From Octopus vulgaris (taxonomy: Eukaryota), in the NCBI GenBank assembly GCA_951406725.2, contig OX597820.1, positions 74,214,001-74,278,000 on the forward strand: 64,000 nt of DNA. The letters are read 5' to 3'. A program made the position numbers and the translations under genes. The notes under the pieces are model-generated. The model saw nothing but the letters and a program-made list of their open reading frames with translations, did not search any database and was not told the DNA's origin. This document shows positions 16,898 to 34,578 of this stretch, piece after piece (position 1 is the first letter of the stretch; each line of letters starts with the position of its first letter).

Positions 16898-17305
16898 GCC
16901 GCATGGCTGCGCGGTGAAGACACTCGCTTTGCAATCACATCGCTGCGGGTTCTGTCCCACCTGGCGGCATCTTGGGAAAAAATGTCTTGTACAATAATCC
17001 CCGGACCGACCAATGTCTTGCGAATGGATTTTGCAGACGGAAACTGCGTGAAGCCCGACATGTGTGTGTGTGTATGCATGTTTGGTACTTACCTCCATAC
17101 CGCTTGGTGACCGATGTTGTTTTGTTTACGTCGTCGTAACATCGGCGGTTCAGCCTAAAACGCCGGTAGAATAAGTACCAGATTAAAAAAATCTCCAAAA
17201 ACAAAAACCTCAAAAACAACGAAGGGGTCAGTTCGTTGGACTCAACCCTTCAAGGCAGAGCCCCAGCATGACCACGGTCCAGTGACTGGAACAAATGAAA
17301 GAGTA
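16898..17305 (+). mobile_element. SINE family A, old diverged copy
   Basis: Degenerate head (catggctgcgcggtgaag...gggttctgtccca...cttggg) and tail (cccagcatgaccacggtccagtgactgga). Confidence 0.75.
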
Positions 17306-17319
17306 AAATAGAAATATTA

Positions 17320-17703
17320 AAATTTCTAAATATCTGAGAGAGATATAAGCAGTGGTGGAACGTGGTGATCAGTGAATTTACTTCATTGAAATTATATATA
17401 TCTATGTTTACAAAGTCTAGTCAGGTATCTTCAGCTAGCAGGCCATGCTACTCCAGACTGATGACGAGCAAGACTCAGAAACATGTCTCTGGATGCAGGC
17501 TTAGCTGTTGGGGGTGCTTGTCTCCCCTTTGTAAACATAAGGACACAGGAAATGTGTCAAGGCCGACAGGAAGCGTTGATGCTTCCTAGGGCTAAATAGC
17601 CGTGGTGTGATTCCCTTTATGGGACTGTCACGTTAAGTTGGCAGTATACAACTGCTCTATAGTTCCACCACTGCATATATCTCTCTGAGATATTTAGAAA
17701 TTT
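17320..17703 (+). mobile_element. Inverted-repeat-bounded cassette carrying a hammerhead motif, ending at (TA)n
   Basis: The 42-bp arms 17320-17361 and 17662-17703 are reverse complements with 2 mismatches. The HHR is at 17452-17493. Confidence 0.8.
17452..17493 (+). ncRNA. Type I minimal hammerhead ribozyme motif
   Basis: UCCAGA-CUGAUGA-C-GAG(caaga)CUC-A-GAAAC-AU-GUC-UCUGGA: 6-bp stem I, canonical core, palindromic ACAUGU stem III and a GUC triplet. Confidence 0.8.
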
Positions 17704-17715
17704 AATTCATATATA

Positions 17716-17778
<63 letters not shown>

Positions 17779-17797: not shown

Positions 17798-17836
17798 ATA
17801 TCTGAAGAAGGAATTTTATTCCGAAATATCATCAGA
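17798..17836 (+). ncRNA. Hammerhead-like motif
   Basis: CUGAAGA-A-GGAAU(uuu)AUUCC-GAAA-UAUCAUC; stems I and III are weak. Confidence 0.5.
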
Positions 17837-23429: not shown

Positions 23430-23630
23430 ATCTCTTGAGCACCACCAGCAAAAATATTTTTTTCCTCTGTCTTCCCTTCTCTGGATCTTTCCTTCTCCTT
23501 TGTTTCTGACGAAGAGCTCCGCTCGAAACGTTAAAGCCTCCTTCCCTTCTTTCCTGAGCATCAAATAATATCTTAATTGTTCCACGTCCTCGCATTGCTG
23601 TGTTTTTTTTCTGTGTTTTCTTGTTTTGAT

Positions 23631-26550: not shown

Positions 26551-26697
26551 GTGTGTATGTGTGTGTGTGTGTACTTATGTATGCGTACTAACAATACCAT
26601 GTTGGTGATGTTGAAATTCCACTGAAGGAGCCTTGGTCCTAGGTTAGAAACCGGTTCTTTCTCTATTGGCAACAAATCTTGAAATAAAGCTGAATAA

Positions 26698-26700
<3 letters not shown>
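26405..26700. repeat. Two tandem units of a ~190-bp microsatellite-containing repeat
   Basis: gatgttgaaattcca...ggagccttgg.tc.taggttagaaa.cg..tcttt.tctatt...aaatcttgaaataaa occurs at about 26418 and about 26607. An inverted copy lies at about 32258-32670. Confidence 0.85.
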
Positions 26701-26747
<47 letters not shown>

Positions 26748-26787
26748 TTATTCAGCTTTATTTCAAGATTTGTTACCAATAGAGAAA

Positions 26788-28413
26788 ACCCCCCCCCTCA
26801 CCGCCACCAACCTCATCGTCCGCACACCCGCACCTCCACCATCTACTTCCTTCCCAAGATCCATAAACCCTCTAACCCTGGCCGTCCCATAGTCTCTGCC
26901 TGTAATTGCCCCACTGAACTCATCTCCCTATACCTCGACCGCATCCTGTCCCCCCTAGTCGCAGCCCTCCCATCCCACATACACGACACCAACCACGCCC
27001 TCCGTCTCTTCAATTCCTTTTCCTTCCCTTCCAGCCCCTCACACCTCCTCTTCACCTTAGATGTAAAATCCCTGTACACAGTGATTCCCCACAATGACGG
27101 TCTCCTAGCCCTCCAACACTTCCTCGACCGTCGTCCCGACCCCACCCCCAGCACCCCCACCCTTCTCCGTTTGGCTGAGCTCGTCCTCACCCTCAATTGC
27201 TTCACGTTCGCCGGGGAAACGTACCAACAGGTGTCCGGGGTCGCGATGGGAACTAGGATGGGCCCCAATTTCGCCAATCTCTTTCTTGGCTACATTGAGG
27301 CCCAAGTGTTCTCCCAGTTCTCTGGGCCGACCCCCGAACTATACGGTCGCTATATCGACGACTGTGTAGGTGCCACCTCCCTTTCCCGGGAACGTCTCGG
27401 CCAATTCATCTCTTTCCTTTCCAACTTTCACCCCTCTCTTCAATTCACCTCCACCATCTCCAACACCTCTGTCAACTTCCTTGACATCTCTCTCCGCATC
27501 GATCACCCCTCCAGCTCTCTCACCACCACCGCCTTCTTTAAACCTACGGATTCCCACCTCTATCTCAACTTCTCTTCCTCCCACCCCTTCCACACCAAAC
27601 GAGCCATCCCCTACTCCCAGTTCCTCCGCCTCCGACGTTTGTGCAGCCGCGACCAGGATTTCGAGACCCAATCTCAATACCTGGCCCGCATGTTCAGACT
27701 CCGAGGTTACCCACCCACACTCCTCTCTGATGCCCTCACCCGCGCCCGTCGCATCGACCGCACTACCGCCTTGTCTCCTTCCCCCGCCCACCCCCCAACC
27801 GCACCCCCTTCCCCCTCCTTTTCCACCCCTCTACCCTACCCCTTCGTCGCAAGATACTACGTGCCTTCCGTCGCCTCCAGCTTGATCCCACCACCCGCCC
27901 CATTTTCCCTAACCCACCCCTGTCCTCTTTCAAACGAGCCCGCAATCTGCGTGACCTCCTGGTCCACAGCACCCTCTCCCCTTCCCCCTCAGCCCCACAC
28001 GGATCATTCCCTTGCTCTAGATCCCGCTGCAACACTTGCCCCTTCATCACCAACACCACCGCTGTCACCGGCTCCAACATGCATACTGTACGCATTAGGC
28101 ACTCTTTTACGTGCACCTCGTCTGGCCTTATTTACTGCATTAAATGCAACCTATGCGGGATGCTGTATGTAGGTCAGACGGGACGCCGGTTGTCCGACCG
28201 TTTCACTGAACACTTGAGGGACGTTCGCCTACACTCTTTTCTCCCGTCGCACGCCACTTCCGCTCGGCCGGCCATTCCCGAGATGACATCTCAGTGTTTG
28301 GTCTCGCCCCCCACAATGGTCGCCCACTTTCCAGGCTCCACTTGGAGCAACGCTACATCTTCACCCTACAAACTACCACCCCACACGGACTTAACACAGC
28401 CCCCTCCTCTTGA
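26788..28413 (+). pseudogene. Penelope-like reverse transcriptase + GIY-YIG endonuclease (two frameshifts, N-terminus missing)
   Basis: RT motifs: YFLPKIHKPSNPGRPIVS, TLDVKSLYT, GVAMGTRMGPNFANLF, RYIDD, NFLD, KPTD..YLNFSSSHP, IPYSQFLRLRRLCS. After a shift near 27800: RNLRDLLVHS, CSRSRCNTC, FTCTSSGLIYCIKCNLCGMLYVGQTGRRLSDRFTEH. After a shift near 28240: PVARHF...LEQRYIFTLQTTTPHGLN, stop TGA at 28411-28413. The first ~30 aa of track ORF 26697 come from (TA)n and the fold-back arm. Confidence 0.95.
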
Positions 28414-33610: not shown

Positions 33611-34578
33611 TGATAATAGTGGTAGACATATTGTGATACAGAAAATTTAGAAAAGAACAAACAAACAAAAAACAAAAAGAAGAGTTTCTCACAATGTTAA
33701 TGTTAAAAGGAAAGTTGAGAAACCTTTTTATATTTCAAGCACGAAAACCCATCATCAGTTTAGAAATATGAGTTTATCTGGATTCAGCCATTTAGATGAT
33801 GATGATGATGATGATGATGTCGAAAATGACAGTTTCAAGTTAAAGCACAGTCCCCACCCGCCATGACAAAAACAACAACAACAACAAAACAAAACAAGAA
33901 ACATCCTAGAGGAAGAAATTAGATTTGAAGAAGAAAATAAATAAAGACAGAGAGAAAAGTTAGGAAGGAAGCAGAAGGGTTAAGAGGATGCTGGTGTCAG
34001 CAAATAAGGAATCTCCAGCTGCTTTCTATTTAAGATTGGGCGAGAAAATGCAATGGTCATTACTTGGTATATGAAGTTGAAATTGAGTCTGCGGCGCCAG
34101 TTGGCTGTTTATAATCTATGGAGAATCAATTCAGACCTTTAGTACTGCACAGTTGTACAGTTGCACAGATAATGGCTACCAATGCTGAGTCAGTGTGAAG
34201 AATGGAAGAATGGCAGGCTAGTTATTGTAGAAGAAATTGCTTCAATCATCTTACCAATATGGCTGAACATAAGAGAAACTTGCACTCGTGTTCTTGTATA
34301 TCAAATATGCATGTATCTATCGTAATATACATACATGCACACATGGGCATAAAGACGCATGTTGTGTGTGTGTGTGTGTGTGTGTTTTCTTTATTCTTCT
34401 ATTCTTTTACTTGTTTCAGTCATTTGACTGCTGCCATGCTGGAGCAGCGCCTTTTAATCGAACAAATCGACCGTATGGTTGGGAAGCAAGCTTCTCACCA
34501 CACAGCCACACCTGTATATATTATATGTGTGTGTTTATACTTATATATGTACATATGTATACATATATATATACATAT

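Follow-up and report, generated by a model that had tools for sequence, protein, structure and literature searches.

A Non-coding Hammerhead Repeat Family of Octopus vulgaris with a Penelope-type Insertion Signature

The cassette and its flanking sequences

The window analysed here is a stretch of 64,000 nt from the Octopus vulgaris genome (contig OX597820.1, forward-strand positions 74,214,001 to 74,278,000), and the cassette under study lies at positions 17305–17706 of this stretch. Its larger part (17363–17706, plus strand) is one forward copy of a circularly repeating, ORF-less monomer of ~355 nt, of which it covers approximately positions 1–343; the best dispersed copies are 86–95% identical. 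A type I hammerhead motif is recognizable in the forward copy (17446–17497, plus strand), with a predicted cut after C17487. Downstream of this motif are a small hairpin and a 'short' 3' end site at monomer position ~297 (17635–17658, plus strand), which would be the first start of reverse transcription, and then a 'tail' of ~55 nt with two AT-rich hairpins that extends to a 'long' 3' end site at monomer position ~345–355 (17659–17706, plus strand), the putative second start. An inverted and 5'-truncated second copy of the monomer 3' end (17305–17361, minus strand; approximately monomer positions 300–354) forms the left arm of the cassette, with its 3' end outward and with the full tail.

The initial annotation described this region as a unit enclosed by 42-bp inverted repeats. 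The match itself was confirmed, as 40 of the 42 positions of 17320–17361 are identical to the reverse complement of 17662–17703, and the fold of the whole unit deviates from that of shuffled sequences by z = −13.6. The extent of the arms had to be revised: the true left arm reaches ~17305, is ~57 nt long with a single indel of 1 nt, and includes 11 nt of the family tail that are missing from the right end, where the forward copy stops at 17706. Hence the arm does not mirror the right end of the insertion.

The left flank (17251–17304, plus strand) is the 3' part of an abundant dispersed repeat that has at least 10 matches in the window at 70–81% identity. This repeat is putatively SINE-like; no tRNA gene was called in it. 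The right flank is a (TA)n tract (~17709–17775, on neither strand in particular), already noted in the initial annotation, which probably represents the insertion target or lies next to it. A TA run was found within 30 nt downstream of 48 of the 130 intact 3' ends of family copies. A hammerhead-like motif sits across the tract from the cassette at 17802 (plus strand), and further hammerhead-like core motifs unrelated to the family are present in the window at 23506 and 10433 (plus strand) and at 33758 and 61505 (minus strand). A search of the window for a second copy of the hammerhead-repeat family found none.

A dispersed family of head-to-tail repeats

From position 44 of the cassette onwards, the sequence has many copies in the genome with 86–95% identity, often arranged head-to-tail; the units at G000:C1:169.826 Mb, for example, are spaced by 354–355 nt. 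Across the 2.8-Gb genome, a pattern for the hammerhead yielded at least 254 exact matches and a pattern for the 3' region at least 112, and neither reversed control yielded any. We analysed 90 loci from the first 100 hammerhead-pattern matches listed and 82 from the first 100 3'-pattern matches listed; approximately ten per list were passed over, most of which were loci already included. Tandem and segmental duplicates were dropped, eight by hand and the others automatically, which left 154 insertions including a few residual duplicates (e.g. L208/L222). Copy boundaries were defined by BLAST against one natural monomer and are accurate to a few bases.

The forward part exceeds one unit in 37 of the 154 insertions, with a maximum of ~3 units in this sample. 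Partial tandems were found, as was one trimer of 1,044 nt that lies, together with a 30-nt arm, inside a single 12-bp target-site duplication (TSD). None of the records found to carry the family is listed as RNA. Pieces of the family also occur in contigs of presumed-RNA runs, beside neighbouring repeats, although such contigs cannot show level, strand or circles.

The predicted hammerhead ribozyme

The window hammerhead has a stem I of 6 bp (UCCAGA at 17452–17457 and UCUGGA at 17488–17493) and the core elements CUGAUGA (17458–17464), GAAA (17478–17481) and GUC (17485–17487), together with a UAC bulge, a CAAGA loop on stem II and a palindromic ACAUGU at stem III. These elements, including GUC, are placed as in the initial annotation, in which the motif was regarded as canonical and near-textbook. 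The latter description does not hold, because the base of stem II (10.1–11.1) is a C·A mismatch; moreover, stem II comprises three pairs and stem III one or two pairs closed by the palindromic loop. When 17250–17710 was compared with Rfam (E ≤ 10), no hammerhead was matched, and none is present among the 150 window-wide matches listed of 265.

The core is not of the non-conserved kind that the initial annotation had named as a counter-indication. In 40 copies that had not been chosen by their core, it is intact in 33, and position 10.1–11.1 is C·A in 33 copies and U-A in 7. Loop 3 reads ACAUGU in 25 of these copies, ACUAGU in 13 and AUAUGU in 2; both main variants are palindromic, as is expected for dimeric cleavage (PMC4209133).

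An alignment of 23 hammerheads from approximately five families (that of the window and 22 located beside LINE ends, all picked by core pattern) showed two-sided changes at all six pairs of stem I. The covariation score was 0.49 against 0.24 for shuffles; kinship inflates such scores, and slid controls scored far lower. Twenty-one of the 23 have a non-standard base of stem II. From the covariation in the stems and the recurrence of the mismatch, the fold appears to be maintained, and the mismatch is a conserved feature rather than a product of decay. A U·U mismatch at the same place is known in active hammerheads (PMC3088659, PMC7229834). For the isolated motif, the active fold was computed at −4.8 kcal/mol and an alternative fold at −13.1 kcal/mol; the model used takes no account of core contacts. 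In a published test of predicted retrozyme dimers, cleavage was reported for only one of nine (10.64898/2026.07.22.740005).

The genome contains at least four more hammerhead families (L346–L384), most of which also start stem II with C·A and one of which has a U3-A8 variant of the core.

Anatomy of the insertions

An inverted segment is located directly upstream of the forward copy, in head-to-head orientation, in 64 of the 154 insertions, whereas 90 are arm-less. The segments range from 24 to 351 nt, which answers the question, raised in the initial annotation, of whether arm length is fixed or variable. The outer end of 47 of the 64 segments lies at one of two family end sites, with the 3' end outward; the other 17 end at neither site and look like local inversions. 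The forward copies end at the short site (S; monomer positions 286–301) in 71 insertions, at the long site (L; 338–3) in 59 and elsewhere in 24. The two sites are ~55 nt apart, and each is located immediately 3' of a small hairpin.

The use of the two sites is paired in a near-strict way. The 43 insertions that retain both outer ends comprise 21 of type L/S, 20 S/L, 2 L/L and no S/S, so that the arm and the forward copy use opposite end sites in 41 of 43 (Fisher's test, p = 2.6e-10) and the tail is present at both ends in just two.

Exact TSDs of at least 10 bp were detected in 20 of the 64 arm-bearing and 7 of the 90 arm-less insertions, as compared with 6 of 615 shuffled pairs. Such a TSD flanks the complete unit in 18 of the 43 two-ended insertions (against the same control of 6/615). 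Under this strict criterion, 44 of the 64 arm-bearing insertions have none. Of the 27 TSDs, 26 are 10–16 bp long, with a mode of 12–13 bp and an AT content of 81%, and their sequences differ between copies. The outer ends of the arms abut the TSD, and the TSDs surround the arm and the forward copy together. The arm therefore belongs to the insertion event.

The family thus combines an inverted, 5'-truncated copy of variable length, a one-sided tail and AT-rich targets with TSDs. An inverted 5'-truncated copy and a one-sided tail are hallmarks of Penelope-like elements (PLEs; PMC8557442, PMC3846280). The comparison extends further in endonuclease-positive PLE insertions (PMC8557442, PMC3846280 and Anolis Poseidon, PMC11167929), which share with the octopus family the partial tandems, the inverted 5'-truncated copy, the one-sided tail, the two 3' end sites and the AT-rich targets. 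The TSDs are also similar in length (8–10 bp in rotifer examples and 10–16 bp here). The published PLE tail is 30–40 nt, whereas that of the octopus family is ~55 nt, and the octopus family is ORF-less. In short, the signature published for Penelope insertions is found here on a retrozyme. The initial annotation proposed that the left arm repeats the 3' end of the element itself in inverted form, as Penelope elements do; this is supported by the variable and often absent arms and by the TSDs.

The window copy departs from the family pattern, with both outer ends at the long site, a short arm and no TSD, the best matches for one being internal to the arm; it stands outside the set of 154 insertions. 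Use of the long site at both ends is rare, and it is this use that makes the copy mimic an element with terminal inverted repeats (TIRs). The same arm-plus-junction was absent from the other copies among 40 candidates scored of 412. The window cassette itself is one ordinary, decaying copy, and the panhandle that the initial annotation expected in its transcript is an accident of this insertion rather than a functional feature, given that just 2 of the 43 two-ended insertions have the tail at both ends.

Proposed mechanism of insertion

The cassette arose by one insertion of the ORF-less hammerhead repeat of ~355 nt. We consider it likely that its arm was produced as a second cDNA, primed by a Penelope-type reverse transcriptase (RT)/endonuclease on the opposite side of the same staggered cut. 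This reading is based on the end-site and TSD counts and on the biochemistry of an Anolis PLE protein, which nicks and extends both strands and starts reverse transcription at two positions between which the tail lies (PMC11167929). A PLE protein supplied in trans would cut AT-rich DNA with a stagger of 12–13 nt, and both 3' ends would be extended on retrozyme RNA, one from each start site. Joining of the two 5'-truncated cDNAs head-to-head would generate the arm and the forward copy, and joining of one cDNA straight to the target would generate an arm-less copy. The hammerhead would probably act as a dimer that cuts multimers to monomers, which would be circularized later.

A different origin of the arm within the same element has to be weighed, namely self-priming or fold-back on one cDNA, or copying from an antisense template, without a second target-primed event. 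Self-priming has been proposed for palindromic PLE junctions (PMC3846280); junctions are symmetric at a few octopus loci (e.g. L039, L110, L112 and L248), and the 17 inverted segments resembling local inversions could be explained in this manner. However, the majority of arm junctions are asymmetric, and the outer ends of the arms lie at the same two sites as the forward ends and abut the TSD. Furthermore, in 21 insertions the arm has a tail that is absent from its own forward copy and hence cannot derive from that copy; the 11 nt by which the window arm extends beyond the forward copy point in the same direction. We regard this explanation as unlikely, and an arm made by a second target-primed event as the better account.

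The relatedness of each arm to its own forward copy bears on the template. The divergence of arms is 7.7% when measured against their own forward copies and 11.3% against other copies (n = 39, p = 8e-8); the corresponding values for tandem overlaps are 7.6% and 11.3% (n = 21). Recurrent minor variants are shared in 123 of 165 cases (41 expected), whereas rare variants are common to the arm and its own copy in 6 of 104 (1.6 expected) and to tandem overlaps in 2 of 63 (1.1 expected). Such sharing shows a common subfamily or source; as rare variants are seldom shared, a single RNA molecule or a circle is no more than a possible template.

The 5' ends were examined at the predicted cut site in 86 segments of the set selected by the 3' pattern. 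Among these, 53 run through the cut site, and 5' ends at the site showed no excess (2 versus 0.8 expected, p = 0.19). Continuity through the cut site without such an excess suggests that the template was circular or an uncut multimer; a religated circle and an uncut multimer would fit the data equally.

A more comprehensive reading would join several of these elements: twin-primed, rolling-circle insertion, in which one Penelope RT dimer would copy a circular retrozyme RNA from two fixed starts onto the two ends of a single staggered cut; an active C·A variant of the hammerhead that several families have in common; and insertion of the Tx1-like LINE lineage described below immediately upstream of the hammerheads, so that the ribozyme would trim the LINE's own read-through RNA. 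We put this combination forward tentatively, as a possibility that is more likely wrong than right in its entirety. If true, its twin-primed rolling-circle part would constitute direct genomic evidence that PLEs mobilize animal retrozymes.

Relationship to retrozymes and Penelope-like elements

By its anatomy, the family is assigned to the non-LTR retrozymes. The unit is short (354–355 nt, within the class range of 150–450 bp), non-coding and arranged head-to-tail, and each unit contains a type I hammerhead with a conserved core, with the caveat that 10.1–11.1 is C·A and that Rfam gives no match. There is no LTR and no contiguous ORF, and the TSDs exceed 4 bp (10–16 bp). Metazoan non-LTR retrozymes have units of similar size (PMC7229834: coral; mussel, 350–390 bp; axolotl, 330/350 bp). 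They are likewise ORF-less with a type I hammerhead having a 6-bp stem I (PMC7229834; Li et al. 2026, 10.64898/2026.07.22.740005), and share a weak palindromic stem III, the occurrence as monomers and short tandems, TSDs of >4 bp and the co-presence of PLEs. The axolotl HHR_Amex2 has a mismatch at the base of stem II as well, U·U in place of the C·A found here, where U-A is the minority form. Two differences were noted: metazoan retrozymes also form long arrays, whereas the octopus family reaches ~3 units at most in our sample, and the available text of PMC7229834, in which the word 'inverted' does not appear, and of 10.64898/2026.07.22.740005 mentions neither inverted arms nor a pair of end sites.

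The copies might instead be mere truncated pLTR ends of some autonomous PLE, with no independent retrozyme. The insertion signature is identical to that of truncated PLE ends, and the PLEs compared were a small sample (30 of at least 150 GIY-YIG matches, the young family and two more loci). PLEs are abundant in this genome, including a very young family present in the window, and none of those examined resembles the monomer. No pLTR-like match to the monomer was found in 30 loci of the young PLE family, and 30 GIY-YIG loci yielded one weak match in the opposite orientation. No RT or GIY-YIG ORF is contiguous with any copy in the 154 insertions within flanks of 1.5–2 kb, as would be seen in an autonomous PLE, and four PLE protein matches near copies are not arranged as for a pLTR. 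The initial annotation suggested looking for longer copies that run into a PLE ORF; instead, of the 75 forward segments extending to the start of the monomer, 60 lead on into the tail of the monomer itself. The sole recurrent foreign sequences upstream are LINE 3' ends or other interspersed repeats. In addition, the hammerhead is of the retrozyme type with a 6-bp stem I, not of the minimal PLE type (PMC4209133). Taken with these data, the pLTR explanation is improbable, even more so than self-priming.

The young PLE in the window (26694–28400, plus strand) has an RT and a GIY-YIG motif. Dozens of loci share its RT segment with 100% identity, some of them in 6.2-kb tandems (G000 C10:97.81 Mb). 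Two tandem loci of this element, of 10 kb each, gave no match to a simple pattern for the canonical hammerhead.

That the cassette is a MITE, i.e. derived from a DNA transposon with TIRs of 42 bp and a captured hammerhead, is suggested by the near-perfect terminal inverted repeats of the window copy and its position abutting TA, but we rejected it as extremely improbable, in agreement with the initial annotation, because fixed TIRs common to the copies and a short superfamily TSD were not found: 90 of the 154 insertions are arm-less, arms vary from 24 to 351 nt, TSDs are 10–16 bp and variable, tandem forms exist, and the window junction recurs in no other copy among the 40 scored of 412. Copies such as the window cassette would be labelled MITEs by transposable element annotators, for which caution is needed.

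The proposed insertion of a retrozyme by a PLE protein in trans has a counterpart in the non-autonomous Chlamys elements of Chlamydomonas, such as MRC1, which are non-coding and PLE-dependent and form pLTR-like or head-to-tail insertions (PMC8557442). Unlike the octopus family, these elements have a 3' end that resembles their autonomous partner, and the clade is reported to be without canonical hammerheads. For animal retrozymes, the mobilizing enzyme is stated to be open in PMC7229834 and 10.64898/2026.07.22.740005, and the available text of these papers links them to PLEs by co-occurrence and pLTR homology, with no use of the insertion signature as evidence. An ORF-less unit that bears all features of Penelope integration is more direct evidence than these. 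In the octopus family this signature is quantified, and the non-canonical base of stem II is conserved. The opposite pairing of end sites in 41 of 43 insertions also constrains PLE reverse transcription, with both cut ends being used and each having a different start site, and the 355-nt monomer provides an RNA for an in vitro test of two-site priming.

The family was not found described in the literature that we searched, though the supplements of PMC7229834 and 10.64898/2026.07.22.740005, which like Repbase and Dfam were beyond its scope, could list it. The same search retrieved no description of a cephalopod retrozyme; the available text of the giant squid genome paper gives just a count of 235 Rfam hammerheads.

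LINE-like elements inserted upstream of hammerheads

The 5' ends of family segments are in excess at monomer positions 67–82 (12 versus 2.9 expected). A transcription start at these positions was first considered as the explanation; several cases proved to be LINE insertions, and the excess led to the identification of LINE-like elements inserted in the retrozyme. The segments L268–L277, L283 and L284 start at positions 67–82, and neither a LINE end nor, within 9 kb, an upstream half accompanies them; another cause, such as an RNA start or an RT stop, may account for starts of this kind.

One of these elements, a derivative 1.6–1.7 kb long, contains a zinc-knuckle ORF only. A hammerhead core is present at most ~40 nt downstream in 31 of 40 scored copies, as compared with 509 of 20,000 random positions. 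A related element with APE, RT and zf-RVT domains has a hammerhead downstream at ~11 of 19 loci, as counted by eye. The insertion point lies 18–35 nt upstream of the hammerhead core, which leaves the downstream ribozyme motif intact, and the targets span several different retrozyme families. Forty loci with long flanks, 30 of them chosen for the hammerhead, were compared for TSD-like repeats (one mismatch allowed); 16 have such repeats, of 13–24 bp, and some of these matches are tandem units and not TSDs. All of the loci concerned (L265, L266, L279, L282, L285–L333 and L345–L384) are located outside the window. The nearest named homologs of a LINE protein from this genome are cephalopod.

Tx1 LINEs typically prefer particular targets (PMC4494074). 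Like the LINEs of the Tx1 clade (Tx1 in Tx1D, Keno in U2, Tx1-Mar in Mariner-N4; PMC4494074), the octopus elements prefer multicopy repeats and have TSDs, and their layout is of the L1/Tx1 type (zf-CCHC; APE, RT, zf-RVT); their preference is well above the 20% criterion. They differ in that the targets are hammerhead retrozymes of several families, and their affiliation with the Tx1 clade, suggested by domains and targeting, is putative. No description of LINEs that target retrozymes was found in our literature search.

A composite consisting of an inverted arm, a retrozyme segment, a LINE-like insert and a second retrozyme segment recurs at at least eight places (C17:44.6–79.7 Mb and C3:176.68 Mb; L248, L251–L256, L266, L279 and L282), with inserts of differing length. 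This recurrence suggests that the composite was duplicated or mobilized as a unit, and some LINE-like insertions may have been amplified as composites. At another locus (L267, G000 C2:56.80 Mb), two oppositely oriented LINE copies both terminate in a retrozyme segment, one at monomer position 78 and the other at 103.
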